From Raillietiella orientalis (Eukaryota): a stretch of DNA of 64,000 nt. How positions within the stretch are numbered: the first letter of the stretch is position 1; each line of letters begins with the position of its first letter. A model generated the notes under the pieces. That model saw nothing but the letters and a program-made list of their open reading frames with translations, was not told the origin of the DNA and did no database searches. The stretch spans positions 1 through 64,000 of the forward strand of contig JAYWIR010000119.1 in assembly GCA_036172245.1 (NCBI GenBank), written 5' to 3'. The position numbers and the translations under genes were made by a program. Below, piece by piece: positions 2,666 through 57,110 of this stretch.

Positions 2666-2749
2666 GTGCAGCGTTGTCGAAGAGCGCGTTCCCGACGTTC
2701 CCGAATGCTGCGAGGAAGAACTCGCCGCTACCGTGGAGCAACGCTCAGT

Positions 2750-18377: not shown

Positions 18378-20059
18378 AGTTGATCGAGCGTTGCTACGAT
18401 AGCGGCTGGCTGCAGGGCGTCCCTCACGGAGAAAAGCCGAAAAACGTCTCTGGGAGGGCTACCTTCCACGATCCCTGGGGTCGTACCCAAGCGTTCCCAA
18501 AGAAGCCGGAGGGCAGCGCAGTCAACTAAGAGGTGCGAAAGGGATTCACGCTCCCCACACCTGGCACATTTTGGATTCACTCGTCCCCGTGTCCAGTGGT
18601 GGCGGCGCGCGTTGCAGCGGAGCCGCCAGTGCAACAGCATAAGCGTCAACTCCTGCCATTTTAGGGGAAGGATCCTTCTTCCGGTTATCACTGGAGGCCA
18701 CTTCAGGTCGTCCGTCGTGGTGCCGAGCAGCTCGCCCAATTTTTTGAGTCCTTGCGGAAGGACGCTCTTGCTTTGTGTCGTCTGCCAGCTGTCCCATGGT
18801 CCAACCGCTCATCAACTTTTCCCTGCCTGCGATACGGCAACAGACTTGCCACGTCGGCGTCCGGCTGCTGACAAGGGCCGTACGCAGGAAGGGCACCACC
18901 GTCGCTAGGCAGGTCGTCCCTGCCCACGTGCTCCTGGCTGGACACTCCAGGATCTCGCGTAAAGTGCAGCGGGCGTATCGGCCGCGTCGCACGCTGTTCC
19001 ACGTCTCATGGCTCCTCTGATTCACTACCGCCCATGTGCCAACTGCCGTTTCTTCCAGCCATGCGCTTGAGTTGACGGAGCCGCAGATCATCCACGCATT
19101 CTCCTTCGCCTGGGTGGCTATTCGTCCGAGAAGAAGGCCGCATCTTCCTATCTTCCTTCCACGACATAAAAGATGAGATGCAAGTCCTCCCGTTCCGGAT
19201 ACATGTCTGGCGAGGAGGCGGGCCGGAACACACAGCAAGGGGTGCTCCACAACTCCGCTGCGATGGCCAAGGTTCGCCATCGCACTTGAATTTCCATGCG
19301 CTCCAGCGTCAGGAGGCCTGGACCACCATCTCGACGCGGAGCGCACGAGTCCATCAAAGGGACTCGGGGCCTCCCCTTGCCCCAAAGGGCGATGCGCAGG
19401 AGATCCTTTATCCTCTTTTTTGTTTCCACGGGGACGGGGCAAACAAAAAGTAGGGGGCGAAGGATGGGAGCCGCAAACGCGTTCCATACCGCGTACTTCC
19501 AGGAACGGGCCGATAGCCAACTTCACTTTCCGGAGACGGCCTGACCAGGCTTCTGACGGGCGGAAGTCGCCCAGCGGAACGCCAAGGTACTTCAAATACC
19601 CGCCCGTTGGGATCCCCATGCGGATCCAATCAGGCCGTCCTACCCACGTCGCTCCAACTGTTACCACCGACGATTTTGCACGGAGCCGCATCCCACGGCT
19701 TAGCAGATCGAAGAAATATTCGACTGCCGTTGCCGGGGCGGACAGTGGGAGCAGGAGCAGCAGATCGTCGGTATATGGCGACACGGCAGGCGTGCCGGGG
19801 AAGGAGCTTGGCAAGGCAGCCAAAGTCGTCCTGTGCGCTCTCAGCACCAACTCGATGTAGGTTCTAAAGAGCAGGGCATTGAGGCTATAGCCCCGCGGTA
19901 TCCCGCGGCACGCCGTACACGTTTTGTCCTCTGAAAGAGATGTTCGTCAGCGCGGCGCGCCAGCAGGAGCGCAGGTACGCACTTAAGGTAGGTGGGAAGC
20001 CCATGCGATCCAGGAGCTCCAGGAAAAGCACGTGGTCCACGCAGTCGAACGCTTTGCGT
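18378..20059 (-). mobile_element. Element P': RT 3' part (from RKAFD to the C-terminal Cys motif); host of H
   Basis: ORF 18546..19850 has YTDDLLL and KYLGVPL. Begins at cgcaaagcgttcgac (RKAFD). Confidence 0.85.
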
Positions 20060-21255
20060 GCTCCAGTGTGGACGTGTTTTCTGGGTGCTTCTCGTGATAT
20101 GAAGTCTTCCCAGTGCTAGCGTCGTGTGGTTCGGTGGTCGATCAGGCAGCGATGCATAAGGCGACCACCAGGAATGGCCAGAGGGCAGCGGCTACGTTGC
20201 CTCCAGAGGCGATGGAGAGCCAGGGGGTGGCGTCAACGTCACCCCTAGAGGCGATGGAGGTGAAGGCATCCGCCCCCACAGAATCGGTCCCCGCTGCAGC
20301 GCGGGCGTGGAGCGCCGTTGTGTCGGCGCCATCGCCTGCAGCCGCGACGGAATTGTCGGTATATGTAGAGAAGGGGTACAATCCCTCATTGTTCTACAAG
20401 TTAGGCAATTTATATTCTTTAGAGAGCGCGCGCGCCTTCTCGAAGGGCATGCGCGCTCTCGATGTTAAAGAGGAGGAGCTCAGAGCTATGACCATCTGCA
20501 GCTGGGGTCAGTACTTTGAGGTCATCTGGAAACAAGCAGAGCTGGCCCAACGACTGCCTAAAACCTTTTTGGTGATTGGGACGCGCAGGCTTCTCCGTAT
20601 TACGGCGGACCGCAGCATGGTGGTTCACCTGTTAGGTGTTACCGCGCGGATGCGCAAGTTACAGGTTCGCGCCGCGTTGGAGGAATACGGAACGGTCCAC
20701 GCGCAGTGGGCAAAAGTTAGTCCTTTCGAGGACTACACGGGGCTACAACACGGCCTTACTGCTGCGCGCGTGACCGTTCGGGAGGGCTGCACTCTTCCCC
20801 ACAAACTGGTTGTCGAAGGCGAAACAGTCTTCCTCTGGTATGTGGGGAAGCCGAAATACTGCGGCTTCTGCAATATGTTGGGCCACCTCTAAAAGAGTTG
20901 TCCCAATGTGCAGTGCCAAGTATGCGGAATTATGGGACACACGAGGAAGGTGTGCGCTAAAGTAGCAGTGCGGGTGGTTTCTAAGAGAAACCTTAAAATA
21001 CGTGCCCGGCTTCTGCAGAAAAGGCTGGCGGCGAAAGCTGCCGCGAAGGCTGTGCCACCCTTCGCTCAAGGCCCAAGCCGCACTCGAGACTCCGGCGAAC
21101 AACGCCGAACAAGTTGAGGGAGCGGCCAGGAGCCTGGGTGGCAGGTGGCTACGGCCAAAAAATCAAAGAAGAAGAGGAGGATGGAGAAAAAGCTCGCCTA
21201 CCGCCAGAAAAAACAGCAGGCAAGCGAGCAAATTGAAGAATGCAGCGTTGTCGTT
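20060..21255 (+). mobile_element. Element H, 5' part (5' UTR plus ORF1 N-terminal part with premature stop)
   Basis: 5' end gctccagtgtggacgtg; ATG 20152; CGFCNMLGHL*KSC and CQVCGIMGHTRKVC knuckles; ends at EECSVVV. Confidence 0.85.
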
Positions 21256-23970
21256 CATTAACCGGTCGCGCCGGGACGTTTATTATAATATCAACTGAGA
21301 ACTGTGTTCCCAGGCAAGGGGAACAGAAAATGGGGAGTAGATTTCCAGGAACGCAGTCCGGACACACTGAAAGTTCGGAACGGGAGGGGGTGGGACAATA
21401 AATAAACTAAGTGGGGGGGCGGGGACAGGGGTATACAGTCTAGCCGTCTCTATTCTCAGAACCGGCGGTGAATGCCGCCGATCTCCATTCTCACTTCTGC
21501 TCCAAGATGTGGCCACCCGGCAGCCATTTGCAGGTTGTAGGCTGCGGTGTCGGGGACCGATGTTGGGACTGCTCGCATCTGCAATACGTGGCGGGCCCTG
21601 ACAATGGCGCGGACGCAGCAGATGATTGCGACGACCGCTCCAAGAGAAAGTCCGCCACGCGTGTAGAAGCGGCGCATCCAATCCAGTGCGGTGTGTCCAG
21701 GGTTCAGGAGCGCTGAAGACAGCCGCTGCCACAGCTCCTGGAGGGCACCGCACTCAAACAGCAAATGCGGAAGCGATTCCACCGCTCCGCATTTGGCACA
21801 GTTCGGGGACGCAACTCTCCCGGAAATCAGGTGCGCCCGCTGGTTGCAGTACAAACCCCAATGCACCAGCAGAAAAGCGTCCTGCATCCACCGAAGGGGG
21901 GAGAGAGTCGCGTCCAAACACGCAGAAGGGACCACAAGTTCATCGGTGGGCACCCCGAGGAGCTCACTCCACCGGAGAAGCCCCTTTGCAAGAATGCGAG
22001 GTGTGGCAGCGTCTGCCACTTCGCAAGTCCTCCAGCCGCCCAGCAGTCGGGTTTCGCCTGCGATTTCGCAAGTGATCTCCCACCTCGCCGGCAGGTCACT
22101 GTCATCTCGCACCATCAGTGCACACAGTGCTTCGGCGAGTGGCGTAGCGCCTAGGCGTGTCCACTGGTCCTGGTCTTCCAGCACCTCCCCCACTGGACAG
22201 TATGGGGAAAGTTTCACGCAACGGAGTTCCAAACGGGACACATCCTGTTGCGCTGCCCAGGACGATAAGGCTTCCTGCCTCCAGGCGTTGAAGTTCGTCG
22301 GCCGGCAGGAGATCCACTCATGCTTTCCCAGAAGCGTGGCGAGCTGCTTCAAAGGGAAGCCGAATCCTCTCTGGGCGCGCTCCGTGCGCAGATGCAACGA
22401 ACGTAGTCCGTCGCCACCCGTGCTGCGCCGCAGCAGCAGCCGCGCTGGAGCACACCAGGGAGTAGTCCAGAGCTGCGCACAAAGTGCCAGCATGCGGAAC
22501 TGCACAAGCAGTCCGATCCGCTCCAGCGTCAGGATGCCCAATCCTGCATCCCGCCGAGGAGCCGCCAAGTCCTTCAGGCGTATCCTGGACCTCGCCGGTC
22601 CCCACAGGGCGTTACGCAACAGGCGTTGCACCCGGCGCTTAGCCGAGTAGGGAGGGGGACAAACAAAAAAGAGGGGACGGAGGAGGGGGGCAACGAAAAT
22701 GTTCCACACGAAGGCCCGTTCCGACAGGAGAAACCTGCCGCCTTGGAACGGGCCCAGAGCAGTCTCGGCCTTGTGAAGGCAGTCCGACCACGCTTCTGCT
22801 GGACAGAAGGCGCCCAAGGGAACGCCGAGGTACTTCAAGCACCTGCCCATGGGGATCCCCAGGCGGATCCAGTCGGACTGCCCCTCCCACGTAGAGCCAA
22901 CCGGTACAACGGTTGATTTCGTCCTGTTCGCGCTCAGGCCAGCTCCCCGACGAATGAGATCGAAGAAGTCCTCGAGCCTGGACGCCGGGGTGGACATGGG
23001 CAGCAGCAGGAGAAGGTCGTCAGCATAGGCGGCCACGTTCGGTGTTCCCGGGCAGGAGCTCGGCAGGTTGGCCAGCGTCAGCCTGTACGCCCTCAGCACC
23101 AACTCAAAGAAGATGCTGAAGAGCAGGCGGCTTAAGCTGTCTCCCTGCCTGATACCCCGCCGTATGGAAACACCGTACACGTGACGCCCGCTGAAAGAGA
23201 TACAGCATAACGCGTGGCGCCAGCAGGAGCGCAAGTAGGCGATGAGGTGCGTCCGGAGGCCTAGGCGTCCCAGAAGCTCCAGAAGGAGGTTCTGGTTTAC
23301 GCTGTCGAACGCTTTGCAGAGATCGACGGCGACTGCTAAGGCTCCCGGCGTTCCATCGTGCCTTGAACACCGCCGCTTTCCTTTGGCAGCGGCGATTTCG
23401 GCTGCCTGGCTCTGCTGCGCCACGCGCTGCTGCAACTCGAACCATGTTCGCGCGAAGAAGAGATTCGCGTCCATGGACCGCCCCGGAACAGCATACGTCT
23501 GCTCCGGACTTACCAAGGACTCCACGATTCTCCCCAGGCGCGCGACCCATAGCCTGGAGAACAACTTGACGTCCGAATTCACCAATGTGATCGGACGCCA
23601 GTTGCTGAGGTGGCGCAAATCACCGCCTTTCGGCAGGAGCCGCACCTTTGCTGAGCGGAAAGAAGCGGGAACATCTCCCGTCTCACGCATCAGCGAGGAA
23701 AGGCTTAGCACCAGGGGGACGAGCTCCGCCGCGAAGCACTGAAAGAACTCCGCGGGCAGGCCATCCTCCCCAGGCGCCTTACGCCTCTTCAGATTCGCTA
23801 TGGCAGAAGATACTTCTTCCGCCGTGAAGGGCCAATCCAATCTGGCGCGTTCCTCCTCGTCGATAGCAGGGTTGCCCGTCGGAAGAAGCAGCTCGGAGAG
23901 ACTGCGTTCCGTGGGTTCCTATGCGTACAACGAGGAGTACTAGCGCTTGACTACGCGGCGCACGGCGGAC
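21256..23970 (-). mobile_element. Element I: 3' part of a LINE with intact 3' terminus (probably the 3' half of K)
   Basis: Long RT ORF. Terminus reads aataaacgtcccggcgcgaccggttaatg on minus. Confidence 0.88.
21456..23840 (-). CDS. ORF2 RT plus C-terminal Cys-rich domain of element I (794-codon open stretch, N-terminally broken)
   Basis: KAPGEDGLPAEF, WRPITLVN, VDLCKAFDSV, GIRQGDSLS, YADDLLL, KYLGVPL, CAKCGAVESLPHLLFEC. Confidence 0.9.
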   Translation of the reverse strand: MDWPFTAEEVSSAIANLKRRKAPGEDGLPAEFFQCFAAELVPLVLSLSSLMRETGDVPASFRSAKVRLLPKGGDLRHLSNWRPITLVNSDVKLFSRLWVARLGRIVESLVSPEQTYAVPGRSMDANLFFARTWFELQQRVAQQSQAAEIAAAKGKRRCSRHDGTPGALAVAVDLCKAFDSVNQNLLLELLGRLGLRTHLIAYLRSCWRHALCCISFSGRHVYGVSIRRGIRQGDSLSRLLFSIFFELVLRAYRLTLANLPSSCPGTPNVAAYADDLLLLLPMSTPASRLEDFFDLIRRGAGLSANRTKSTVVPVGSTWEGQSDWIRLGIPMGRCLKYLGVPLGAFCPAEAWSDCLHKAETALGPFQGGRFLLSERAFVWNIFVAPLLRPLFFVCPPPYSAKRRVQRLLRNALWGPARSRIRLKDLAAPRRDAGLGILTLERIGLLVQFRMLALCAQLWTTPWCAPARLLLRRSTGGDGLRSLHLRTERAQRGFGFPLKQLATLLGKHEWISCRPTNFNAWRQEALSSWAAQQDVSRLELRCVKLSPYCPVGEVLEDQDQWTRLGATPLAEALCALMVRDDSDLPARWEITCEIAGETRLLGGWRTCEVADAATPRILAKGLLRWSELLGVPTDELVVPSACLDATLSPLRWMQDAFLLVHWGLYCNQRAHLISGRVASPNCAKCGAVESLPHLLFECGALQELWQRLSSALLNPGHTALDWMRRFYTRGGLSLGAVVAIICCVRAIVRARHVLQMRAVPTSVPDTAAYNLQMAAGWPHLGAEVRMEIGGIHRRF

Positions 23971-24641
23971 GCTGGCTGGTGTGGCTTTCATGCTCAAGCC
24001 AGCCGTCGTTAATGCGCTGCGCGACGTGCACTTCAACGGGGAAGGTCAAATCGGGCAGCTTGTTGCCAAGTGGTCCGACGCGATCGACCTCGTCGTGACC
24101 AACGTGTGCGCGCCCGGCACGAGCCACAGGCGCGGGGAACGCACTGCGTTCTTCGAAGGCCTGCGGCGAGATTGGCTGGCCGAAGCAGACATGCGAAAGG
24201 CGCACCTCATTGCCGGGGACTTTAACGTCCGCCTGCTGGCAGGTGCGCCCGACATTCGCGCACAGCTGGTCAACGAGATGTGCGCTGCCATGCACGCGCG
24301 CAACTTGTTGGCCGGTGACGCCGGGACGGAGACGAGGATCGACCACATGTTCCTCGACAACCACCTGTGTTCGCGGGTGGGAAATCGAGGGGCAGTGCCA
24401 TCCGAACTTTCCGACCATCCCCGGCTCGTGCTAGAAATACACCCGCGAGGTAGAGGTCCACCCTCCACAGCGTGGCGTTTGCCAGGGGACTGGTTGCGCC
24501 TCGCAGGAGCAGCGCAACATCTTCGCTTGTTCCTCCAAGGCTTCCATCTGCAGTCGCTGGCGGACTGGGACGACTTGAAGAGCTCAGGCCGCGAGTTCTG
24601 CGACCAGTTTCCCCTGAACCGTCTCCCTCCAGGTTTCGGCG
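23971..24641 (+). mobile_element. Element A, endonuclease fragment (5' part lost)
   Basis: ORF 23981..24673: TNVCAP, IAGDFN, RIDHMF, SDHPRL, ending LPPGFG at the insertion site. Confidence 0.88.
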
Positions 24642-27586
24642 ATGCCACCCGGATACGCCGGGACGTTTATTAAAAACATTTCAACGGTCAATACAGAACG
24701 TGGTACAAGGCCCCACTGACGGCCACGGAATGCCGGAACTGCCGGGACACCGGGACGCAGCCCGGTGTGCGTCTCCTCGGCAGAGGAGGGGGATGGGGGA
24801 AAAAACAAAAATAAAATAAAATAGAAAAACAAACCACAAAAAAAAAAGTTTGGAGGGCCGGGAAGGGATCACAGAAAACTGCTGGGAGCGCCCATCCTTT
24901 GCAGGATGCCTTCTAGTTCCATTTTCAGCTTTCCTAGATGGGGCCATCGGGTAGCTCTCTGCAGGAAGCGCGAAGCATACTCGATGACGTCCCTCACGAT
25001 GCAGTCTTCATCTTCGGCATCACTCCAGGTCGCCACGATACCACGAATGCAGCAAAGTGCTGCCAGGGCTGCGGCTGGACTGAGGGCGTCCCGCACGAAG
25101 ACAAGACTGAAGATGCATTCAACATTGCCACCATCCGGTATCCGGAGGGCCGTTTTCAGACGATCCCAAAGAATCCGGACGGCAGGGCATTCAACTAAGA
25201 GGTGGGGGAGCGACTCCCGCTCCCCTCACCTGGCACACGCAGGATTTACTCTTCCCCGCGTCCAGTGGAAGCGGCGCGCGTTGCAGGGTAGACCCCAATG
25301 CAGCCACAGAAGCGCCGATTCTTGCCACTTCATGGGGAGAATCCTGGATCCAAGTAGAACCGGAGGCCACTTCAGGTCATCCAGTCGAATGCCGAGCAGC
25401 TCGCCCCATCTTCTTAATCCACGCGGCTGGAGACTAGGGGTCGTTGCATCTGTCAACTCTCCCATGGTCCAGCCGCTCATCATCTTCTCTCTGCCTGTGA
25501 TACAGCAGCAGACTTGCCACCTTGGCTTCCGGCTTCCGTGAAGCGCCCTTTGGAGGAAGGGCATCGCCGTAACAAGGGGTGTGCCTTCCGCCCACGTGTA
25601 ACTCGGTGGAAATTCAAGAATATCACGGAGAGTGCGGCGGAAGTATAAACCGACTCGCAGGCAGTTCATCCGGTCTTCGCACCTTTGGTTCTGCTTAGCC
25701 CAGGTGCCAGCAGTCTCTTCCAGCCAAGCGAAGGAGTTGGCAGGGCCACAAACCATCCAGTCGTTCTCCTTTGCCAGGGTTGCGATGCGGCCGAGCAGTA
25801 GACCGCATCTTCGAATCTTCCGGCCAGGGCACAGAAGAAACGATGCGAGTCCTTCGCAGCGGGACACACGCCTGGCCAGGAGGCGGGCCGGAATGCACCA
25901 AGCGGTGCTCCACATCTTCGCTGCGATGGCGAGGGTCCGCCATCACAGCTGGATTTCCACGCGCTCCAGCGTCAGGATGCTGAGACCGCCGTCCCGACGC
26001 GGAGCGCACAAGTCTTTCAAAGGGACTCGGGGCCTCCCCTTGCCCCAAAGAGCTATGCGGAGGAGGTCCTTAGTCCGCTTTTTTGATTCCACGGAGGCGG
26101 GGCAAACAAAAAGCAAGGGGCGGAGGATGGGGGCCGCGAAGGCGTTGCAAACCGCGGCCCGTTCCGGCAAGTGAAACTTGCCTTCCAGGAACGGGCCGAT
26201 CGCCGTCTCGACTTTTTGGAGGCAGCTGGACCACGCTTCCGCAGGGGAGAAGTCCCCCAACGGCACACCGAGGTACTTGATGCACCTCACCGTGGGGATC
26301 CCCAGACGGACCCAGTCCTGCTGCCCTGCGCACGTCGCTCCAACTGGCAACACTGACGACTTCGCCCTGTTAACCTGTAATCCGGCCCCACGGCTAAGCA
26401 GGTCGAAGAAATCTCCGACCGCCTTCGCCGGGGTGGACATAGGTAAGAGGAGCAGAAGATCGTCGGCATACGCCGCTACGGCTGGCGTGCCGGGGCACGA
26501 GCTCGGCAAGGGGGCCAAAGTCACCCTGTACGCTTTCAGCACCAACACAGCGTAGGTGCTAAAAAGCAGGGGGCTGAGGCTGTCGCCCTGCCTTATGCCC
26601 CGCCGCACCGGCACGCCATACACCTTTTGTCCACTGAAAGTAATCGAGATTATCGCGTTCCGCCAGCAAGAGCGCAGGTAGGTAATCAAGGAAGGTGGGA
26701 AGCCCATGCGACCCAGGAGCTTCAAGAGGAGTTCCTGGTCAACACAGTCGAATGCCTTATGGAGGTCGACTGTGATCGCTAAAACCCCCTTTCCCGCATG
26801 AGGGTGCCTTCCCTGTCCCACTGGCGGCCCCAAAGTAGGGTTGCAAATTTTCCCTTTCCCTTCTTTATTACTCCGCTGCGCGTGCATCCATGTGCTCGCG
26901 AAGAAGAGGTTGTCCTCCATACTTCGCCCGGGAACAGCGTAAGTCTGCTCCGGGCTAATTATGGAATTGGACACCTGCCCCAATCGCGACGCCCGCAGCC
27001 CGGCAATCAACTTGGCGTCCGTGTTCACAATCGTGATCGGACGCCAGTTGCAAAGTTTCCTGAGGTCTCCTCCCTTCGGGAGGAGCCTCACCCTGGCTGA
27101 CCGAAACGAGGCGGGATCATCGCCTTCGTCTTGGATTCGCCTTGTCAACTCGAGCACCAGGGGGGCCAGCTCTTCCGCGAAACTCTGAAAGAACTCCGCG
27201 GGCAAGCCGTCCTCCCCTGGCGCCTTACGCCTCTTGAGCCTTTTGATACCGGCGAGAATTTCACCGGTCGTGAAAGGCTCATCGAGGCTTTCTTTGTCCT
27301 CCTCCCCTATCGCCACGGAACCACTCATGAGCAATCGCCGCGAGGCGTCTTGTTCGGGTGGTGTTTTGGCGTAAAGGGAGGAATAAAAACACCGCACGGG
27401 ATTCCGTACCGCAGGCGGGGACGAACGTTCCCGGCCCAGGTCATCCAGCATGCTGGCTGACCCTGATTACCTAGCTTGTCGCTCGGCTCCGGCGCGGTAT
27501 TCGGCCAGGCGACGGACATTGGGGTTCCTCTCGTGATGACGCGCGTGCAAATACGCGCGTTCGTTGCGAGCCCCGTCGCCGAATCC
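24642..27586 (-). mobile_element. Element B, 3' half (post-EN linker, frameshifted RT, 3' UTR and terminus)
   Basis: ORFs 25943..27451, 25226..25915, 24869..25096. Terminus aataaacgtcccggcgtatccgggtggcat. Confidence 0.9.
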
Positions 27587-27596
27587 CTTGGCGAGT

Positions 27597-27603
27597 GGAC
27601 GTG
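27597..27603 (+). promoter_or_regulatory. GGACGTG, DPE-like internal promoter motif
   Basis: Present at all intact 5' ends: 20070, 27597, 44725 on plus; 35962, 39756, 55103 on minus; variant TGACGTG at 2665 and 12665 on minus. Confidence 0.55.
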
Positions 27604-27682
27604 TTTTTCCTTCGCTCCCGAGTGAGTCGACAGGAAGCGGTTTTTTGTTGTGTTGTTTAGTGCGGAACATCGTTGGTGTCCG

Positions 27683-29439
27683 ATGGCAGCGATGCCTGAG
27701 GACACCACGATGGAGGTAGGTGTGGGGGAGGCTTGCCCACCCCCACAGCCTACAGAATCAGTGGCGTCCGCCCCGGAATCGCCCTCGCCGCTCAAGGCGA
27801 GGAGCTGGAGCGCCATGGTGGCCGCGCCGAGCGCGGAAACCATGGCCGAGATGGCGGCCTACCGGGCAGCTGGGTACAAGCCCAGCTTGGTTTACCAGGT
27901 AGGCAATCTCTTTGACGGGCGAACTGCACGCGCTTTTTCGAAAGCGCTGCAGAACGCCAACGTATTAGAAAAGGACCTTGACGGTCTATCCGTGCTAAGC
28001 GGGGGTCAGCGCGTTGAGGTTGTCTGCAAGGACATCACCTTGGCGCAAAGCTTGATAACCACCCCGCTGAACGTGGACGGACGCAAGATCCTACCAGTCA
28101 CGATGGACCGCTCCGTAGTGGTCCATCTGACAGGGATCACCATCCGCATGACGCGGTCTGCGGTTGGTGATCAGTTAAGAAAGCACGGGGATGTTCACGC
28201 GCTTTGGCCAAAGGCCACAATCTTCGATGGCTACGATAGCCTTTTCGGAGGGCAGGCCGCCGCGCGCGTGACGGTGAACGAGAGTGGGCTTCCCCACAAA
28301 CTAGAGGTCAATGGCGAAGTCGTAGACCTCTGGTGCGTGGGGAAACCCCGCTTTTGTGGCTACTGCAATGCAGTAGGACACTTGCGCAAGCGGTGCCCGA
28401 ACATTGTGTGCCACTTATGCGGGGAGAAGGGCCACGTACGCCGCGTATGCCCTAAACTCCCCACTCCGGTGCCGCCTGCTGCAAAAAAAGCACAGGCAAA
28501 ACGCGGTAAACTGGTCGAAAGACCAAAAAGAGATACTGGCCGGCAGCAGCCGCTAGCCCCTGTTCCTCCCACACAGGCGTCGGAAGAAAAACCCTCCGAA
28601 GACGCGGGAGTCCAAGACGGCTGGCAGCTGGTCAAGGCCAGGAAGGAGAAAACGGTGCCCCCCGCGGAACCCGCAAAAGCGGTAAAAAAGACAGCCGGCA
28701 AGGCGAAAAAACCTGGGCCGCGCTCTAAGACCATGCAGGAGTGTACGGTAGCACTGGAGCGCATAGCCGTTCCCGAGATTGCCACCCGGGGCGACGAGCC
28801 TTCCCTCGCCGTTTCCGCCGCGCCCGAGGTTCGCGACGGCGAACCCTCTGTTTACACAGAGGGTGAGCCGCGCGACGCGCCGGTCGACACTGCGGACGCC
28901 GCGTTCGCAAAGGCGGCGGAGGAGCTCGCAGCCACGCTGGCGGAGCGTGAGAACCCCTCACGCAAGGCCGTGCGAAGGCCGGCTCCCGCGAAAAAGGCCC
29001 CCACAGGTGAGTCGGACCTGGGGGCCGGAAGTGCATCCTCCTCCTCGGAGGCACCCCCAGGAAGTCGGGACGCAAGTCCCAGAAACCCAGGAGGCGCCTC
29101 CCCTCCACCAGCGAGGAGGAGAAGCAGGAAGGTAGCGGTAGCGTGGGAATCCTGGAGGGGGAACTCCCACGCTCGGAAGCCGTCGAGCCGGCCACCCCCA
29201 TGGAGGAGGGTGAGCAGGGGGGCGAAGTCCTCCCTGCAGTCGCCGAGCCTGAACAGCCCGCCCCCATGGAGGAGGGCCAACAGGTAGGCGCGACCCCACT
29301 TAAGGGTGATCCGGACGACGCGCCGGCACCGATGGATGAGGAGGAAAAGGTGCCTTCAGTACCTGTCCCCCCTCCCCCTCCACCTAACGTCCCGCCCCAG
29401 CAGGTGGCGGACGCCGCATCGCCGTTTTCCCTGGACTAA
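27683..29439 (+). pseudogene. ORF1 of C (two CCHC knuckles), one frameshift near 29060
   Basis: CGYCNAVGHLRKRC and CHLCGEKGHVRRVC. The C-run before agg is one base shorter than in the intact B ORF1. Confidence 0.88.
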
Positions 29440-32400
29440 CACTTGGGCTCGCCAGTCGCCGTCGGATTCGCGCGGCCTGTTGGAACGTCAACGGGCTGCG
29501 CGACGACGGCAACAGGCGAGATACAGCCGACGCCCTGCGTGAGCTCGACCTGGCGCTGCTGCAGGAGATCCACGTGATCACCGCGGCAGACGCCCAGGAA
29601 ATCGAGACGATCGCGGGGGGTCGGCTGTATTGGCGATGCGGCCTCCGCAACACGTGCGGGGTCGCGTTCTTCGTGAAGCCGGCCATCGACGCTGCCGTAA
29701 AGCGCGTGCGGATTGATGACGACGGTCGGATCGGTCAGCTGATTCTCAGCTGGTCCGACTCGATCGACCTAATCGTCACAAACGTGTATGGCCCCAGCGG
29801 TAAACAGGGATACAGCGACCGTACCAGGCTGCTGGATTCCCTGAAGCGCGACTGGCTGGCGGACACGAACGTGCGGAAGGCTCACCTGATAGCGGGAGAT
29901 TTCAATCTCCGTCTGCTAACAGGTGAGCCAGAAACACAAGAGAACGCGATGAACGAGTTGTGCGCCGCCATGCGTGCGCGCAACTTGTTCGCGGGTGAGA
30001 GGGGACTGGTCCGCAGCATCGACCACGTCTTCCTCGACGCTGACCTGTGTTCACGGGTCGGCAAACGGGGGAGGGTTGCGTCGACGTTGTCGGACCATTC
30101 CCGGTTAATTTTCGAGATGCGGCCTCGTGACTAGGGACCGCCATCCAGGGATTGGCGTCTGCCGGGGGACTGGACGCGACTCTCAGGTGCGAAGGAATAC
30201 CTTCGCGAATACCTGAGAGGTGTCACGCTCCGGAATCTCCAGGACTGGGACCTTTTTAAGGAATCGGTCCGCGAGTTCTGTGAGCAGTTCCCCTGGATCG
30301 CCTGCCCCCCGGATTCGGCGAGGGTGCTCGCAACCATCGGGCCTATTTACAGGCTCGTAGGTACGAGAGAACCCCTAATGTCCGTCGCCTGGCCGAGTAC
30401 CGCGCCGGGGCCGAACGCCAAGCCTGGCAATCCGGGTCGGCCAGCTTGCTGGACGACCAGGGCCGGGAATGCTCGTCCCCGGCGTCGGTACGGCATCTCG
30501 TGCGGAGTTTCTATTCCTCCCTTTACGCCAGGCAGCCCCCGGATCGAAACGCCTCTCGGCGCTTGCTTCCGGATGGCGCCCCGGCAATAGGGGAGGAGGA
30601 GATGGAAAGCCTCGACGAGCCTTTTACCACCGGCGAAATTCTCGCCGGTATCAAAACGCTCAAGAGGCGTAAAGCTCCAGGGGAAGACGGCTTGCCCGCG
30701 GAGTTCTTTCAGAGCTTCGCGGAAGAGCTGGCACCCCTGCTGCTTAAGTTGATCAGGCTGATCCGAGACGAAGGCGATGTTCCCGCCTCGTTTCGGTCAG
30801 CCAGAGTGAGGCTCCTGCCGAAAGGGGGGACCTCAGGGATTTAAAGAACTGGCGTCCGATCACGATCGTGAATACGGACGCCAAGTTGATCGCAGGGCTA
30901 TGGGCTTCGCGTCTGGGGCAGGTGGCAGAATCCGTAATTAGCCCGGAGCAGACTTATGCTGTTCCCGGGCGAAGTATGGATGCCAGCCTCTTCTTCGCAA
31001 GCACATGGGTGCACCTGCAGAGAAGAGAGAAGAAAGGGATAGGGAAAGTCGGCAACCCCACATTAAGGCCGCCAGCCGGGCTGGGAAGGGACCCCCGGGC
31101 GGGGAAGGGGGCCCTAGCGCTCGCAGTCGATCTCCACAAGGCGTTCGACTGTGTAGACCAGGAACTTCTCTTGGAGCTCCTGGGTCGCATGGGCTTTCCA
31201 CCCTCCCTGATTTCCTACCTGCGCTCTTGCTGGCGGAACGCGATAATTACCGTCTCTTTCAGCGGTCAAAAGGTGTATGGCGTGCCGGTGCGGCGGGGCA
31301 TAAGGCAGGGAGATAGCCTCAGCCCCCTGCTCTTCAGCACCTACTTTGAGTTGGTGCTGAGAGCGTACAGGGTGACTTTGGCCCCATTGCCGAGCTCGTG
31401 CCCCGGCACGCCCGCCGTAGCAGCATACGCCGACGATCTTCTGCTTTTGTTGCCAATGTCCACCCCGGCAAAGGCGGTCGGAGACTTCTTCGATCTGCTC
31501 AGCCGCGGGACCGGACTGCACGTTAACAGAGCGAAGTCGTCGGTTGTGCCAATAGGTGCGGCGTGGGCAGGGCAGCAGGACTGGGTCCGTCTGGGGATCC
31601 CCACGGCGAGGTGCTTCAAGTACCTTGGTGTGCCGTTGGGGGACTACTCCCCTGCGGAAGCGTGGTCCAGCTGCCTCCATAAAGTCGAGACGGCGATCGG
31701 CCCGTTCCTGGAAGGCAAGTTTCACTTGCCGGAACGGGCCGCGGTTTGGAACGCCTTCGCGGCACCCATCCTCCGCTTCTTGCTTTTTGTTTGCCCCCCC
31801 ACCGTGGAATCCAAGAAGAGGACGAAGGACCTCCTCCGTATCGCCCTTTGGGGCAAGGGGAGGCCCCGAGTCCCACTGAAGGACTTGTGCGCTCCGCGTC
31901 GGGACGGCGGTCTTGGCCTCCTGACGCTGGAGCGCGTGGAAAAGCAGCTGCCGTGGCGAACCCTCGCCATCGCAGCGAAGATGTGGAGCACCCCTTGGTG
32001 CACTCCGGCCCGCCTCCTGGCCAGCCGTGTGTCCCGGTGCGATGGACTCGCGTCTTTTCTTCTGAGCCGTGGCCGGAAGATGCGAAGATGCGGCCTACTG
32101 CTCGGGCGCATGGCAACATTGGCCAAGGAGAACAGCTGGATGGTTTGCTGCCCCGCCAGCTCCCCCGCCTGGCTGGAGGAGAATATTGGAACGTGGGCAG
32201 TAGTCAACCAGAGAAGCCACGAGACGTGGAATCGTCTCCGATGCAGCCCCTACGCCCGCTGCACGCTGCGGAATCTCCTGGAGAGTTCAGCAAGATGCAC
32301 GTGGGCAGAGACGACCTGCCTAGCTACGGCGCTACCCTTCCTAAGGAGGGCACTTCACAGCACCCGGACGCCAAGGTGGCAAGTCTCCTGCTGCATCGAG

Positions 32401-33033
32401 GGACGCGAGAAGTTGATCAGCGGCTGGACAACAGGAGAACTGGCCGACGCCTCGACCCCGAGCGTCCAGCCGCGAGGATTATTAAGATGGGGCGAGCTGC
32501 TCGCCATCCCCCGGGATGAGCTGAAGTGGCCCCCGGTGATGAAGGAATCCAGGATCCTGCCCCTCAAGTGGCAAGAGTCGGCGTTGCTTTTGTTGCACTG
32601 GGGTCTACCCTGCAACGCGCGCCGCTTCCACTGGACGAGGGGGGCTGTGGATCCTGCGTGTGCCAGGTGCGGGGAGCGGGAGTCGCTTCCCCACCTTATT
32701 GTGGATTGTGCTGCCCTCCGACCCCTTTGGGAACGGTTCGGGACGACCCTCGGGCTCCCTACGGGTAGCACCCCCAGAGACGTTCTTCGGCCCCTCTTCG
32801 TGAAGGACGCACTGCAGCCAGCCGCAGCCATCGCAGCCTTGTGCTGCGTCCGTGGCATCGTGGGGGCATGGAGCGACGCCAACAACGAAGGAGTGGGTCC
32901 ACAGGCGAGGGATGTCATCCCGTATGCCAAACGCTTCTTGCGAAGAGCTGCCGGATGGCCCCAACTAGGGAATATGCAGGCTGACCTCGAGGGCTTCGTT
33001 CGACGGATGGGCCCTCCCCACAGCGACCAGTGA
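29439..33033 (+). pseudogene. ORF2 of C (APE-RT-Cys), with a stop at 30132 and frameshifts near 30290 and 30830
   Basis: WNVNG, LQEIH, GDFN, IDHVF, SDH; RT in ORF 30868..33033 with DLHKAFD, GIRQGDSLSP and YADD. Confidence 0.9.
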
Positions 33034-41794: not shown

Positions 41795-44714
41795 TTGCCA
41801 CCCGGTGACGCCGGGGCGTTTATTTCAAATACTCCATGATTCGTGGTACGAGGCCCCACTACGGCAAACTCAACTGGACCTGCCGTGTCGCCGGTACGCA
41901 GACCTGCGCGACTCTCCTCGGCAGCGGAAGGGGGTGGGAGAAAAAACAAAAAGAAAACTAAATCATGAAAACAAAAAGATTTGGGAGGGCAGGGAAGGGA
42001 TCAAGGTCCATTGGAAGGAGGATCCATCCTTTGCAGGATGCCCTTGAGGTTCGTGCGTATATTTCCCAGGTGGGGCCATCTGGTCGCATTCCGCAGGTAG
42101 CGGACTGCAAGTACGACGGCATCCCTGTCGTGGCTCGGTCTTCTGACGTTGCTCCAGCAAGTCACAATCCCGCGTATGCAGCAAAGTGCAGCCAGGGTAG
42201 CGGCTGGAAGAAAGGGAATCCTGCAAGAACAGAAGCCGAATAACGTCTCTGGGCTGGCTGCCCTCCTGGATCCGTAGGGAGGGACGAAGACGTTCCCACA
42301 GGGGTCGGAGGGCAGCACAATCAACAAGGAGGTGGGGGAGGGTTCCCCGTTCCCCACACCTGATGCAGGTAGGATCTGCTCGAACCCTGGTCCAGTGGTG
42401 GCGGCGTGCGTTGCAGGGTAGACCCCAATGCAACAACAGAAGCCCTTACTCCTGCCACTTCAGGGGGAGGATTCTAGAACCAATTACTACCGGGGGACAC
42501 TTCAGGTCATCCGGCTGGATGCCGAGTAGCTCGCCTCATCTCTGAAGTCCTCTCGGCTGGACACTAGGGGTAGTGGCGTCTGCCAGTTGCCCCGTGGACC
42601 AGCCGCTTATCAACTTCTCCTTGCCTGGGATGCGGCAGGAGAGTTGCCACCTAGGCTTGGGGCTGCTAAAGAGCGCCCTCCTCAGGAAGGGCATCGCCGT
42701 AGCTAGGGGGGTTGTCTCTGCCCACGTGCTTCTCGCGGGACACTGGAGTACCTTCCGCAGAGGGCAGCGGGAATAGGCGCCGCGTCGCAGGCAGTTCCAC
42801 ATCTCTCCGTTCTTCTGGTTTATCTTCGCCCTCGTGCCAGCTGTCTCCTCCATCTATGCGGAGGAGTTGGCGGGGCTGCATACCATCCAGCCGTTTTCCT
42901 TAGCCAGAGTTGCCATGCGTCCCAGGAGAAGTCCGCATCTCTTGATCTTCGAGTGGCGGCACAGCAGATGAGACGCGAGACCCTCCGTTCCGGATACACG
43001 GCTGGCAAGGAGTCGGGCCGGAACGCACCATGGGTTGCTGCATAACTTCGCTGCGATGGCCAGGGTGCGCCATCGCAGCTGGATTTCTACTCTCTCCACC
43101 GTCAAGAGGCTGAGACCGCCATCCCAACGTGGAGCACACAAGTCCTTCTAATGGACTCGGGGCCTCCCTCTTCCCCAAAGGGCAAACCTCAGGAGGTCCT
43201 TCGTCCTTTTCTTCATGTCCCTGGGGACGGGGCAAACAAAAAGCAGGGGGCGGAGGATGGGAGCCGCAAAGGAGTTCCACACCGCGGCCCGTTCCGGAAG
43301 CAGGAACTTGTTTTCCAAGAACGGGCCGATCGCCGTTTCCACTTTTTGGAGGCAGCCGGACCACGCATCCGAAGGGGAGTAATCCCCCAACGGCACACCG
43401 ACGTACTTCAAGCACCTGGCCGAGGGGATCCCCAAACGGACCCAGTCCTGCTGCCCAGCCCACGTCGCACCGACTGGTACCACCGACGACTTCGCCTTGT
43501 TAACCTGCAGTCCGGTTCCGCGGTTAAGCAGGTCGAAGAAATCCTCGAATGCCTTTGCCGGGGTGGACATCGGCAACAAGAGCAGAAGATCGTCGGCGTA
43601 CGCTGCTACGGCGGGCGTGCCGGGGCACGAGTTCGGCAAGGGGGCCAACGTCACCCTATACGCTCTCAGCACCAACTCAAAGTAGGTGCTAACGAGCAGG
43701 GGACTGAGGCTGTCGCCCTGCCGTATGCCCCGCCGTACCGGCACGCCGTACGCCATTTGACCTCTGAAAGAGATATTGATCAGCGCGCTGCGCCAGCAAG
43801 AGCGCAGGTAGGTCAGTAGGGAGGGAGGGAAGCCCATGTGTCCCAGGAGCTCCAGCAGGAGATCCTGGTCCACGCAGTCAAACGCTTTATGCAGATCGAC
43901 TGCGATCGCTAGGGCCCCCTTCACACCTGGGAGTCCTGTCCCTGCCCGGCTGACGCCCCCAAAGCGGGGCTGCCAATCCTTCCCTCTTCCTTTTCTACAC
44001 TACTCTGCACATGAAACAATGTGCTCGCGAAGAAGAGGTGGCCTACATACTTCGCCAGGGAACAGCGTATGTCTGCTCCGGGCTAATCATGAAATTGGCC
44101 ACCTGCCTCAGACGCGAAGCTTACAGTCCGGCGATCAGCTTGGCGTCCGTATTCACAATTGTGATCGAACGCCAGTTGCTGAGTTTCCTGAGGTCTCCTC
44201 CTTTCGGAAGGAGCGTCACTCTGGCTGACCGAAAAGAGGCGGGTACATCGCCTTCATCTCGGATCAGATTTGTCAACTCAAGCACCAGGGGTGCCTACTC
44301 TGCCGCGAAGCATTGAAAGAACTCCGCGGGCAGGCCGTCCGCCCCTGGTGCTTTCCGCCTCTTGAGCCTTTTGATACCGGCGAGAATTTCGCCGGTGGTA
44401 AAAGGCTCGTCTAGGCTTTCCTTCTCCTCCTCCCCTATTGCCGGGGCACCGTCCGGAAGCAGGCGCCGAGAGGCATCTTGGTCTGGGGGCGCCCTGGCGT
44501 AAAGGGAGAAATAATAACTCCGTACGATGTGCCGTATTCTAGCCGGAGCTAAGTGCTCCCTGCCCTGGTCGTCCAGCAAGCTGGCCGACCCGGATTGCCA
44601 GGCTTGACGTTTGGCTCCGGCAAGGTACTCTGCCAGGCGACGGACATTGGGGGTCCTCGCGTAACGACGGGCATACAAGTACGCTCGTTTGTTACGGATC
44701 CACTCCCCAACTCC
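41795..44714 (-). mobile_element. Element E: 3' half of a LINE (linker to terminus), degenerate
   Basis: ORFs 44295..44837 and 43148..43924 (YADD). Terminus aataaacgccccggcgtcaccgggtggcaa. Confidence 0.9.
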
Positions 44715-51883: not shown

Positions 51884-54800
51884 CCAGCAACTAGGCGCCC
51901 GCATTCACTATTGTGATGGGACGCCAGTTGTTCATGCTCCTCAGATCTCCTCCCTTAGAGAGGAGCCGCACCTTTGCCGAACGAAATGAGGCGGGAACGT
52001 CACCTGTCTCGCGTATCAGCAAGGTGAGTTGCTGTACCAGGGGGGTAAGCTCAGCCGCGAAAGTTTGATAAAACTCCGCGGGCAGGCCGTCCTTCCCTGG
52101 AGCTTTGCGGCTCTTGAGCTTTCCGAAGGCCGAGAGGATCTCGTTCATCGTGAAACGCTCGTCGAGGGTCTTTCTCTGCTCCTTTCCGATCGCTGGAGCG
52201 CCTTCCGGAAGAAGGAGTCGTGAGACGTTCTTCTCCAGAGGTGCCCTGGCATACAGGGAGGAGTAGTAACTCCGCAAGAGGCAGCGGATTTGGGCGGGTG
52301 CCGAGTGCTCCTGGCCCTGATCGTCCAGCAAACTGGCCGATCCGGACTGCCAGGCTTGCCTCTCGGCTCCCGCTTTGTATTCCGCCAGCCTGCGGATGTC
52401 GGGGGTCCTTGCGTAACGACGGGCCTGCAGGTAGGCTCGTTCCTTACGGACCGTGGTCCCAAAACCCGTAGGTAGGCGGGGCAGAGGGAACTGGTCGCAG
52501 AACTCCTGGACCGACCGCTTGAAGCGATCCCAATCCTGGATTGTCCGCACCCTGAAGCTTCGTATGAACGTGTGGAGATGTTCCGCCGCGTCCGGGAGCT
52601 TCAGCCAGTCCCCTGGGAGACGCCACACTCACGAGGGGGGGCCCCTGTCGCGCGGATGGATCTCGAGGACTAGCGGGCGATGGTCGGACAGCTCGCACGG
52701 TAACTTGCCGCGCCTGCCCACGCGAGGGCACAGGTGCTCGTCAAGAAACACGTGGTCAATGCTGTTTTCCATCCCCGGTGCACTGACCAACAAATTACAG
52801 GTGTGCACCGCCATGCACACCTCGTTGACCAGGTCACGCTCGGGATTCTGCCCATCTGGTTTCAGGCGAACGTTGAAATCGCCTGCAACCAGATGGGCAT
52901 TCCGCACGCCTGCTTCGGTCAGCCAGTCTCGCTGGAGGGCAAGGAAAAGCTCTTTCCTCGCCCTCCTGGTCATCAGATCTGCGCCGCTCGGTGCGTACAC
53001 GTTCGTGACGATCAGATCGATCGAGTCGGACCACCTGAGAGTCAGCTGGCCGACACGACCGTGATCGTCGAACCGCACGCCCAGAGCCGCGGCCTCCACG
53101 GCTGGCCGAAGCAGGTAGGCGACACCGCAACTTTTCGCTCTCCCACACCTGTACCATAGCCGCCCTCCGGAGATCCGTTCGATCTCTTGCGCTTGTGCTG
53201 CAGAGATCACGTGGTTCTCCTGCAGCAGCGCAAGGTCGTAGGACTCCAGAAGTGCGGCCATGTCTCTTCTTTTGTTGGCGTCTGTCATGCCGTTCACGTT
53301 CCAAACGGCCATGCGTAGTCGACGGCGGGAGGAGATTCCTGGCATTACTGCTGGGAAGATTAAAGTGTGGGGGAGCCCGCCTCTTGCGAGGCGGGTGGGA
53401 TGTCCTAGGGGGTTCTCGGACTTCTCAGGCACCTGAGCCACCGCTTTGGCCTTCACCCCCTCCATCCCCTCCATGTCCGTGCGTGGGAGTCTCTCGGGCG
53501 ACGGGTCCCGAGAGTTCCCCACGCTCATGGCACCCTCGCTTGCGGAAGCCATCTCTTCCCGTACGACGGGAAAGACGAGCTTCCTTGGCTTTGTGGACTT
53601 ACGTCCACCCTTCTTGCGCGGTGCCGTGGAAACGGAGGCTTCGCTTCCGGCCTCCACCTCGGGGTCGGAAGTGGGGGACTCCTGAGGGGAGGCCGGACGC
53701 CTTACGGCCTTCTTGCCAGCCTTGGAGGCTTTTGGCTGCAACGAGGCAGCCAGTTCCTCCGCGGCTCGCGCGAAGGCTGCGTCATCGATGGTGGTGTCGA
53801 TGACGGACGCCGCCGCCGGCTCGCTTCCCTCGCTATGACAGAGTCAACAGGGGGGAGGTCGCCGGTAGCGGCGAGTTCTTTCTGGCAGCGTTCGGCAACA
53901 TCGAGAACGCGTTCGACAACGACGCTGCACTCTTTAATTATCGCGCTACCGTGCTCTTTCTTCTTCTGTTGGTATGCGATTTTTTTTTTCGTCCTCTTCT
54001 CCTTCTTTGATTTTTTGGCCGTTGCCACTTGCCACCCAGTCTCCTGGCCGCTCCCTCAACTTTTTCGGCGTTGGAAGCCGGGGTCTCGGGTGCGGCCTGG
54101 GTCTTGGGCGCGGGTGGCACAACCTTCGCGGCAGCTTTCGCTGCCAGCGTTTTCTGCAGAAGCCGGGCGCGTTTTTTAAGGTTTCTCTTGGAAACCACCC
54201 GCACTGCTGCTTTAGGGCACACCTCCCTTGTGTGACCCATTGTGCCACATGCTTGGCACTGCACGTTGGGACACCTCTTTTTGAGGTGGCCCGACGTATT
54301 GCAGAAGCCGCAGTATTTCGGCTTCCCCACATACCAGAGGTCGACGGTTCCGCCTTCGACCACCAGTTTGTGGGGAAGAGTGCAGCCCTCCCGAACGGTC
54401 ACGCGAGCAGCCGTGAGGCCATATTGCAGCCCCGTGTAGTCCTCGAAAGGACTAACTTTCGTCCACTGCGTGTGGACCGTTCCGTGTTCCTCCAGCGCGG
54501 CGCGAATTTCTTCCTTGCGCTTCCGCGCAGTAACACCTAACAGGTGGACCACCATGCTACGGTTCGCCGTAATAGGGAGGAGACTGCGCGTCTCCATCAC
54601 CACGGGGGTTGTAAGCAGTCGTTGGACCAGCTCTGCTTGTTTGCAGATGACCTCAACGTACTGACCCCCGCTGCGGATGGTCATAGCCCTGAGCTCCTCC
54701 TCTTTCACATCGAGAGCGCGCATGCCCTTCGAGAAGGCGCGCGCGCTCTCTAAAGAATATAAATTGCCTACCTTGTAGAACAATGAGGGGTTGTACTCCT

Positions 54801-55113
54801 CCTCTACATAGGCCGACAATTCCGCCGCGGCTGCAGGCGATGGCGCCGACACAATGGCGCTCCACGCCCGCGCTGCAGCGGGGACCGATTCTGTGGGGGC
54901 GGATTCCCCCATTTCCATCGCCTCTGGGGGTGACGTTGCCGCCGCTTCCTGGCTCTCTATCGCGTCTGGGAGCTGCGTTTCCGCTGCCCCCTGTCCATCC
55001 CTGGTGATCGCGTCAGGCATCGCTGCCTGATCGACCACCGAACCACAGGACGCTTGCACTGGGGGAGACTTTTTGGCACGAGGAGCACCGAGAAAACACG
55101 TCCGCCCTCGAGC
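51884..55113 (-). mobile_element. Element L: H-family 5' end, ORF1 (ATG 55020), EN and start of RT, interrupted by M
   Basis: ORFs 53938..55059 (CGFCNTSGHLKKRC), 52629..53741 (EN), 51891..52628. Confidence 0.9.
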
Positions 55114-57110
55114 GCATAAGGCGTTCGTCTGTGTAGACCAGGAACTCCTCTTGGAGTTTCTGGAGCGTCTTGGGCTTCCGATTCAACTTTTCCTGTACTT
55201 GCGCTCCTGCTGGTGCCACGCTCTACTGAACTTGCATTTCAGTGGCTCTCGCGTGTACGGCGTGGCCGTGCGCTGAGGTATAAGGCAGTGCGACAGCTTT
55301 AGCCTGTTGCTCTTGAGCATCTTCTTTGAGTTGATGTTTAAAGCGTACAGGTTGACGCTTGCCGTCCTGCGCAGAGCCTCTCCCTGCACTCCGTCCGCAT
55401 CAGCATACGCCGACGACATTCTTTTTCTGTTGCCCATGTCCGTTTCTCCGGAGTCGTTCGAAGACTTCTTGGAGATGATCCGTCGTGGAGCAGGCATGAG
55501 CCTTAACAGGGCGAAGTGCTGCGTCGTGGCGGTGGGTGCGTCGTGGTTGGGGTAGGCCGAGTGGGTCCGCCTCGGGATCCCCACGTTCAGGTACTTCATG
55601 TACCTTGGCGTTCCGTTGGGCGACATCTGCTCGTCAGAAGCGTGGTCGGCCTATCTTCAAAAGGCAGAGATGGCTCTCGGCCCGTTTCTGGAAGGCAAGT
55701 TGGTCTTTTCGGAAAGGGCGTGCATATGGAACACTTTTCTTGCACTCCTCCTCCGACCCTTGTTTTTTGTTTGCCCGCCTCCCTATTCGGTGAAACTACC
55801 GGCGCAGCGTCTCCTACCCAAAGTGTCGTGGGGCGCTGCAGGCTCCAAGGTTTGCCTTAAAGATTTGGCTGCACCATGCTTGGTTGCAAGCTTAGGCATC
55901 CTGACCATATAGAAGATTGGACTGCAAGTGCAGTTCCGGCTTCTATCCCTATGTGGGAAATTCTGGTCTAGTCACTGGTGTGCTCCGGCTCGCCATATCC
56001 TCCAGCGATGTGTCGGCAGTGCATGACTGCTTTCGTTGCTGCCGCGCAACTTTCGCCGTAGAACTGGATTTGGCTACCCACTGAGGCATCTGTTTTCGTT
56101 GTTGTTAGCCCATTTTTGGATTTCCTGTCGTCCCTTCAGCTGGAATGCCTGGCAGCAGGAAGCTCTGGAGCATGGAATTCCACTTTGAATGTGCGTCCAG
56201 AGCAACTGGGACCTCTAAAGGGCCTCTTACGCAAACCGCTAGCAGTCATGCTAATGGACTGGTCGCTTTGGTCCCGGGTAGCCGTCTCACTCATCGCCGC
56301 AGGGCTGTCTGCCCTCAGGGCAAACAACGACAGTAGCCAACCGGCAAGGTGGAAGTTTTTCTGCAGCATTGCAGGAGTGGAAAGACTGCTGAGCGGCTGC
56401 AAAACAAGCGTATTGGTAGAAGCTGCCACTCCTCGTTACCCGGCAAAGGGACTCCTTCGGTGGAGAAAGGTTGTTGGATTACTCCTCGAAGATCTTGTGG
56501 TCCCTTCCTTGTGAGTGGACACCTCCGTGTTCCCGCTTCGATGGAAACATGATGTTCTGCTTTTCCTGCACTGGGGATTTCAGTGCAATAATCGCAGGCA
56601 CTTGGTTTCCGGAGAAGTTGCCTTCCTGAACTGCCTCTGGTGCGGGGAGTTAGAATTGCTTACGAACCTGCTCTTGGACTGCAGTGACTTGCGGGAGTTA
56701 TGGCGGAGACTTGCTTCGGCGCTTCGTCGTCCCCAGGACATTGCCATCGACCTACCGCGACGTTTCTTTAGGGAAAACGGACTATAAAAAGGCGCTGTGG
56801 TCGCAACAATCTGTTACATCCGCGCCATCGTAACGGCCCGCCGTAAGCTACAAGGAAGCTCCCGGCGAAAGGTCGCCGACAGGATATCCGCGAACCTCAT
56901 GAAGGCAGCTGTCAGGTGGCCTCATCTGTCCACATAATTCTCCAGGGAAGTCGCCATCGTCAAACAGCGCTTCTAGGAAGATGAGGAACGTTTAATACCA
57001 AAGATACCTGACCCCAACCTCCACTGTTTTTTGTTTGTTCTGTTCTTTTTTGTTTTTTTTGTACCCCTATCCCCCAGTTCGCTTCTTTTTGAAGTCGGCC
57101 TGCGTGCCCA
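55114..57110 (+). mobile_element. Element N: heavily decayed RT 3' half (I/F-like); host of L and outermost element of the cluster
   Basis: HKAFVCVDQE, YADDILF, YLGVPLG, CLWCGELE, with many stops. T-rich 3' UTR at ~57025-57090. Confidence 0.85.

Follow-up and report, generated by a model that had tools for sequence, protein, structure and literature searches.

The 64,000-nucleotide stretch analysed here (the window) comprises positions 1 to 64,000 of contig JAYWIR010000119.1 in the Raillietiella orientalis assembly GCA_036172245.1. Up to about position 57,100 it is a nest of long interspersed nuclear element (LINE) retrotransposons with ~60% GC, and beyond that point the GC content is 40-49%. 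The Pfam domains detected in the window were Exo_endo_phos, which corresponds to the apurinic-like endonuclease (APE), RVT_1, a weak zf-RVT, and a CCHC knuckle in open reading frame 1 (ORF1). The layout of the elements was obtained by mapping the window's own ORF1, APE and reverse transcriptase (RT) proteins back by tblastn, and in this way about a dozen LINEs were placed on both strands. Two of them, designated H and L, each adjoin the RT of another, host LINE in antisense, between the codons DL and (H/R)KAFD. The two elements, their hosts P' and N, and an uninterrupted copy of the site, P1, are located as follows.

20059, + strand: H head, TGCTCCAGTGT followed by GGACGTGTTTT
20059..21254, + strand: H part 1, consisting of the 5' head, a 5' untranslated region (5'UTR) of ~95 nt, and ORF1 with a stop
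21255..39780, - strand: nested antisense insertion(s) splitting H in the ORF1-ORF2 spacer
39781..41793, + strand: H part 2, the start of ORF2 (APE and RT to about residue 155), ended by the tail of the element E41794; placed by tblastn
55114, - strand: L head, CGCTCGAGGGC followed by GGACGTGTTTT
51888..55114, - strand: L, consisting of the head, 5'UTR, an open ORF1, and the start of ORF2 with APE, ended at about RT residue 160 by the tail of the element Z
18402..20058, - strand: host P', a 5'-truncated LINE RT downstream of the site, running from (R)KAFD and ending at the H head; placed by tblastn, RT residues from about 202/235 on
55115..57110, + strand: host N, a degraded LINE from another clade, represented by its RT portion downstream of HKAF(V)
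10028..10111, - strand: P1, the uninterrupted (empty) site in a tandem paralogue of P'

The H junction, read on the - strand (20076-20060, 20059 and 20058-20044), is cacgtccacactggagc-a-cgcaaagcgttcgac, and the L junction, read on the + strand (55097-55113, 55114 and 55115-55129), is cacgtccgccctcgagc-g-cataaggcgttcgtc. The initial annotation had presented these two junctions as matching each other, and the quoted strings proved exact and shared the codon boundary between DL and (H/R)KAFD. In host sense, P' shows the reverse complement of the H head followed by CGC AAA GCG TTC GAC (R K A F D), and N shows that of the L head followed by CAT AAG GCG TTC GTC (H K A F V). When the RT copies of the window that reach the site were aligned, eight of the ten ran uninterrupted through ..GTCGATCTC and CATAARGCGTTCGAC.. 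(AVDL followed by HKAFD), and the remaining two, P' and N, left the RT at the same column, where a LINE 5' head in reverse complement takes over. The site is conserved at the protein level in all ten copies and largely so at the DNA level, with the synonymous variants AAA/AAG, GCG/GCA, TTC/TTT and GAC/GAT occurring among them; the D of VDL in D-x-x-K-A-F-D is, by the standard assignment, the catalytic Asp of motif A. Both H/L heads (two of two, n = 2 only) thus adjoin the same nucleotide of the same target with a precision of within 3 nt. Using a simple geometric estimate for two insertions falling within 3 nt of each other, in the same orientation, in a 5.65-kb LINE, we obtained a rough probability of ~6e-4 per pair for such a coincidence. 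The junction observation is real and not a product of chance.

The heads at these junctions are genuine full-length 5' ends of LINEs, as seen from a comparison with four other heads. The six elements share a head composed of 6-11 nt and then GGACGTGT(T/G)TT, the head sequence of H and L being GCTCSAGKGYGGACGTGTTTTCT, and the ORF1 ATG lies ~95-110 nt after the shared head in a conserved context in all six. At the other end, six element tails consist of AATAAACGYCCC, a short hairpin and then GGTGGCAA, with no poly(A); a scan of the window for the tail motif gave seven matches, six of them true LINE tails and one spurious and internal. An apparent likeness between the reverse complement of the H/L head and the host sequence upstream of the site was rejected as chance: it needed a 5-nt shift by the aligner, and in the natural register ~3 of 18 positions matched by eye. 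The H/L head motif was also searched for in other data. A scan of metagenome contigs returned one locus, L001, which has no other likeness to the window and was regarded as a chance match, and a scan of prokaryote genome contigs returned no matches.

H and L are two related APE-type LINEs of one family, with 87.9% identity from the head through the 5'UTR and ORF1, rising to 93.3% in the first 2 kb of ORF2; their ORF1 products share 71% amino acid identity. In both, ORF2 encodes an apurinic-like endonuclease and then an RT. Exo_endo_phos was detected in the ORF2 of L (52629-53843, - strand) at 5.3e-12, the upstream part of the L RT was placed by tblastn, and RVT_1 was detected in sibling elements, the RT core of H and L themselves having been removed by nested insertions. 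H is a single element that a large antisense insertion has divided: the 8-bp direct repeat CGTTGTCG flanks that insertion as a target-site duplication (TSD) and is present as a single copy in L. The ORF1 and APE frames are open in L and contain stops in H. The differences between the two elements are evenly spread over the codon positions (39/46/52 in ORF1 and 19/28/24 in APE), with ~3 non-synonymous changes per synonymous one among the changed codons, and this neutral codon pattern is of no help in proving separate active masters. A protein search with the ORF1 of L found no relative at E<=0.001 among 8000 scored candidates of 211-674 aa.

The empty site P1 is supplied by a 9,988-bp tandem repeat of LINE fragments (8-10065 vs 9996-20052, 98.4% identity), and P1 runs through the site into its own upstream RT. 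P' and P1 are 98% identical over 900 nt, and their last 70 nt are the same save for three changes within the 7 nt touching the H head (20052-20058 vs 10059-10065, CGCTTTGCG vs CGCCTTATG). Because these changes adjoin the head, the breakpoint of H is fixed only to within ~3 nt; the changed bases may be associated with the junction itself, for example as extra nucleotides at a capped 5' end. The high identity of the tandem repeat starts 167 nt beyond the site, at ~245/10233, inside the RT, and the segment P0 (1-244) is ~80% identical to P1. The arrangement suggests that the repeat originated by unequal crossover between two RT copies before the arrival of H.

The two hosts had been assigned to different subfamilies, and the difference between them held: P' and N are 65% identical over the first 150 nt and 60-61% over 900 nt, with no rise next to the junction, and a split with 100/100 support separates them, with P' in the group of the elements A, B and E41794 and N in that of V and W. 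They are not duplicates of one host. The accompanying proposal that the insertion inactivates the host became moot, as both hosts were found to be already defective. P' and P1 are 5'-truncated, 2.4 kb in length, and carry a common frameshift ~50 codons after KAFD, and N has no open frame of at least 200 aa and contains at least one stop and one frameshift.

Further support comes from sibling elements that occupy other fixed sites within the nest.

27590..33241, + strand: element A, a full-length sibling LINE, antisense in Y, with the 10-bp TSD CGCCGAATCC
about 35990 to 24699, - strand: element Y, antisense in Y2
23954-38956, + strand: element Y2
41794..44700, - strand: E41794, a LINE whose 3' tail adjoins H part 2
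50645-51887, + strand: Z, adjoining L at the same RT position as E41794 in H

These include a nest three deep, A in Y in Y2, each antisense and with 10-bp TSDs. The insertions of A in Y and of Y in Y2 are both at GGATTCGGCG (Gly-Phe-Gly, in the APE-RT linker), and a third A-type head, A2 (~44700), stands at the GGATTCGGCG site of E41794. Since A and Y were inserted at one sequence and with TSDs, this lineage inserts by target-primed reverse transcription at fixed sites. E41794 and Z are 95.6% identical, and their tails (41794 and 51887) lie at RT residue ~155-160 with the common flank CCAGCAACTAGG. They form part of an inverted repeat (39789-43034 vs 53889-50644) in which H part 2 and E41794 correspond to L and Z over 3.2 kb at 93-96% identity. 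The insertions at this third site give weaker support for a general rule, because their hosts are 93% alike and may not be independent. Run X1 (share 0.12), compared with 50600-57200 at 80% likeness, yielded 292 short related contigs; five run X1 contigs pass uninterrupted through the site of Z in L (loose end at 51888), and none of the six loose ends listed, with 202 more beside them, falls at 55113/55114, a result that says nothing on the flanks of other H/L copies.

The site follows the subfamily: all three A-type heads are at site 1, both H/L heads at site 2, and both E41794/Z tails at site 3. Six sites are in use: two in the RT (motif A, KAFD, and near residue 155), one each in APE, ORF1 and the ORF1-ORF2 spacer, and one in the APE-RT linker (GFG codons). 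The LINE-in-LINE junctions lie at 20059, 21255, 24699, 27590, 33241, 35990, 38956, 39780, 41794, 44700, 46757, 51887 and 55114. Every one of the ten readable LINE-in-LINE insertions, which are distributed over these six sites, is antisense to its host (two-sided binomial probability of 0.002 by events and 0.03 by sites), and nicking of the host sense strand seems to be the rule.

The ORF1 site concerns the tail of Y2 (AATAAATGCACCGG..GGTGGCAA, at 38920-38960), a variant of the common LINE tail, which lies antisense in the ORF1 of a short element that looks like ORF1 only (39787 to 38957, - strand). An uninterrupted relative of that element, with 89% identity, is present in the tandem unit at 1865-2696.

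What is seen directly at the locus is a pair of 5' junctions at an identical position in unrelated hosts, an empty paralogous site, and fixed sites with TSDs used by sibling elements. The reading that we consider probable is that H and L are separate, sequence-specific insertions, made by target-primed reverse transcription, of one APE-type LINE subfamily into a conserved multicopy target, antisense in the RT of other LINEs. The H/L endonuclease would then nick the host LINE on its sense strand, a few bases into the KAFD codons. At the sibling sites nicks follow ..GGCG and ..GTCG, and by analogy the nick here is predicted after ..AAGGCG or ..AAGGCGT, and the predicted TSD would be 9-10 bp long and start with CATAAGG. 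The freed 3' OH would prime reverse transcription of the element RNA, whose 3' end would be the short hairpin ending in GGTGGCAA, without poly(A), and the second-strand cut would lie 8-10 bp from the nick, at the boundary of the DL and HK codons, and the full-length 5' end would be joined there. Specificity would reside in the endonuclease, possibly with help from base pairing between read-through RNA and the target, of the kind known from R1/R2-type elements. What the family gains is likely a place to land that is conserved, present in many copies and does the cell no harm; as the two hosts were dead by then, the damage to them is incidental.

Several observations weigh against this reading. 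It is based on only two events, both of them 5' junctions, and eight of the ten sites in the window are unoccupied. The matching 3' junctions and TSDs expected at the KAFD codons were searched for within the window, and none was found; none of the six hairpin-bearing LINE tails in the window is followed by the RT sequence of the KAFD site, and no RT fragment in the window ends at AVDL. Neither host retains its upstream half within the window, and the nest is broken at 50644/50645; the far 3' ends of H and L also lie outside the window, the tails of E41794 and Z having interrupted both elements near RT residue 155-160. The two insertions at site 3, placed as they are in hosts 93% alike within an inverted repeat, could have spread by conversion. 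Finally, H differs from L by 7-12% in a neutral codon pattern, yet its host P' is 98% identical to the empty P1, which does not agree with a straightforward, recent insertion by an active master copy. Two explanations offer themselves: the source of H had already decayed when it was copied, or conversion has kept the tandem units similar. The claim of the initial annotation that the family targets an RT motif therefore stands as far as the same-site junctions are concerned, with site-specific insertion as their best reading, but the one-sidedness of the two junctions makes H/L targeting a good lead and not an established case.

Among the alternatives, the one that survives best, although we regard it as unlikely, is rearrangement in place of insertion, either as a twin-priming inversion or as breakage or recombination at the conserved motif that joined unrelated pieces. 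In twin priming of L1, the 5' and 3' parts of a LINE come to lie head to head, both arms derive from one RNA, and the joints vary. The geometry at the H and L junctions is likewise head to head, both supposed insertions lack their far side, the break at 50644/50645 is non-insertional, and a 10-kb tandem duplication was produced by crossover inside the same RT. Twin priming requires, however, that both arms come from one RNA, and we rejected it: the upstream RT of H/L is only ~72% identical to that of P, so that the two arms are not of one family, H and L have hosts from separate clades, the position of the joint does not vary, and P1 presents the host uninterrupted with its own upstream RT. 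Rearrangement of any kind would also have to place both breaks exactly at the full-length 5' terminus of H/L, and no sequence is common across the joint that could drive recombination.

A second alternative, which we hold to be rather improbable, is that the family inserts in LINE DNA with a weak nick preference, in the way that Zepp-type elements enter their own clusters, and that two insertions happened to coincide. The window is nearly pure LINE to ~57,100, so any insertion lands in a LINE, and every copy of the conserved motif presents the same short site for nicking. Set against this are the low probability of a same-orientation coincidence within 3 nt, estimated above, and the exact reuse of sites by the sibling subfamilies.

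It is also very improbable that the two junctions represent a single event, in which one ancestral composite of an RT fragment and H/L was copied by segmental or inverted duplication. The 3.2-kb inverted repeat carries the same nested junction in both arms, and the differences between H and L look neutral, both of which speak for such copying. The host flanks, however, are only 60-61% identical (65% in the first 150 nt) and belong to different clades, P' being instead 98% identical to P1, and the copied segment would need to stop exactly at the 5' terminus of the element. The divergence is moreover uneven, at 12.1% between H part 1 and L, 6.7% between H part 2 and L, and 4.4% between E41794 and Z (p 8e-13), which argues against a single duplication and leaves room for conversion between the 3.2-kb inverted repeats. 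Duplication of a composite is thus largely refuted by the divergence of the hosts, and conversion across sequences of 60% identity is not credible.

Equally far-fetched is the idea of a hyperparasite selected to strike and disable rival LINEs at a catalytic motif that they cannot mutate, since, for all that the site lies two codons after the motif-A Asp and is conserved in protein in all ten copies and largely in DNA, the hosts were defective to begin with, escape is possible through the synonymous variants that exist among the copies, and other subfamilies use non-catalytic sites (linker, spacer and ORF1). This suggests that what matters is a conserved multicopy sequence and not the catalytic residue; the notion of an immutable motif is speculation, and a safe multicopy target fits equally well.

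Site-specific insertion by H and L may, more tentatively, be part of a wider pattern. The sibling subfamilies could form a guild in which each has a private, strand-fixed site in other LINEs, specificity having diversified within one lineage and one genome, so that LINEs parasitise LINEs and not the genes of the cell; such nesting would build a LINE-only, GC-rich island, perhaps centromere-like as in some green algae, with H/L having settled next to the catalytic Asp of their hosts.

Known targets of APE-type LINEs are ribosomal DNA (rDNA), small nuclear RNA or transfer RNA genes, microsatellites, telomeres and a DNA transposon, and elements of the Tx1 clade include Tx1L, found in the Tx1D transposon, as well as Keno, Kibi, Koshi, Mutsu and Dewa. 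R1 and R2 in 28S rDNA and ingi/RIME in the RHS genes of trypanosomes occupy one nucleotide position in a conserved multicopy gene and disrupt the copy in which they sit. These targets are cellular genes, unlike the catalytic motif of another retrotransposon adjoined by H and L. Target-specific non-long-terminal-repeat elements have transposons among their targets, and those of them that encode an APE are the clades Tx1 and R1 (PMC4640811). By the conventional view, LINEs of this type settle in multicopy sequences because insertion there is harmless (PMC4640811). H and L resemble the Tx1 and R1 elements in being LINEs with an APE and an RT at one exact sequence in multicopy DNA; they differ in that their target is the coding sequence of RT motif A in another LINE, entered in antisense, and in that several sibling subfamilies are found here in one nest and enter one another, each at a site of its own. 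By name, the closest relatives of the RT are Tx1-like (the Atlas row 'Transposon TX1 149 kDa protein family', score 0.96), with RT matches at 27-31% identity that include a Danio 'pol-like protein' at 27%. Together with the weak zf-RVT, these relatives make a Tx1-like RT a plausible lead from sequence likeness, as distinct from a clade placement by tree.

LINE-only, GC-rich islands formed by nested insertion that targets existing copies are described for Zepp and ZeppL of green algae (PMC8226300), and for Zepp a GC content of 61%, local peaks of GC and clusters as long as 42 kb are reported (PMC3446292). The window matches this picture in layout, as a nested LINE cluster of ~57 kb with ~60% GC beside DNA of 40-49% GC. 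In contrast to the elements reported here, the accessible parts of the two papers (PMC8226300, PMC3446292) describe no fixed sites within elements, no orientation rule and no subfamily-specific targets; Zepp arrays are, as far as these parts state, mostly composed of 3' ends, whereas the nest in the window is rich in full-length heads. A keyword search of the literature found no report of a LINE aimed at RT motif A of another LINE, which is not proof of absence. If confirmed, H/L would represent a variant of the target-specific APE LINEs that is aimed, unlike known cases, at the conserved catalytic motif of other LINEs. Target-specific LINEs are natural models for programmable, site-specific, RNA-templated insertion of DNA, and if the siblings each use other sites in the same hosts, the nest would be a natural experiment in changing the specificity of APE endonucleases. 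It would also, if true, show how LINE-only islands, which are possible centromere cores, grow by self-nesting.

Two further features of the nest were observed. At 50644/50645 there is a break that is not an insertion: W (- strand, beginning inside APE) and Z (+ strand, beginning at about RT residue 487) meet head to head with no head motif, and the remainders of A2, E41794, H and L predicted by the nesting are missing. The break could be a deletion, a rearrangement or an assembly join. At the edge of the nest near 57,100 the 3' untranslated region of N is shortened, and the flank at 57100-64000 is AT-richer (40-49% GC) with no ORF longer than 131 aa. In the bin 57009-57200 the summed contig depth in run X1 reaches 239, compared with 1-40 elsewhere, which points to another abundant repeat.

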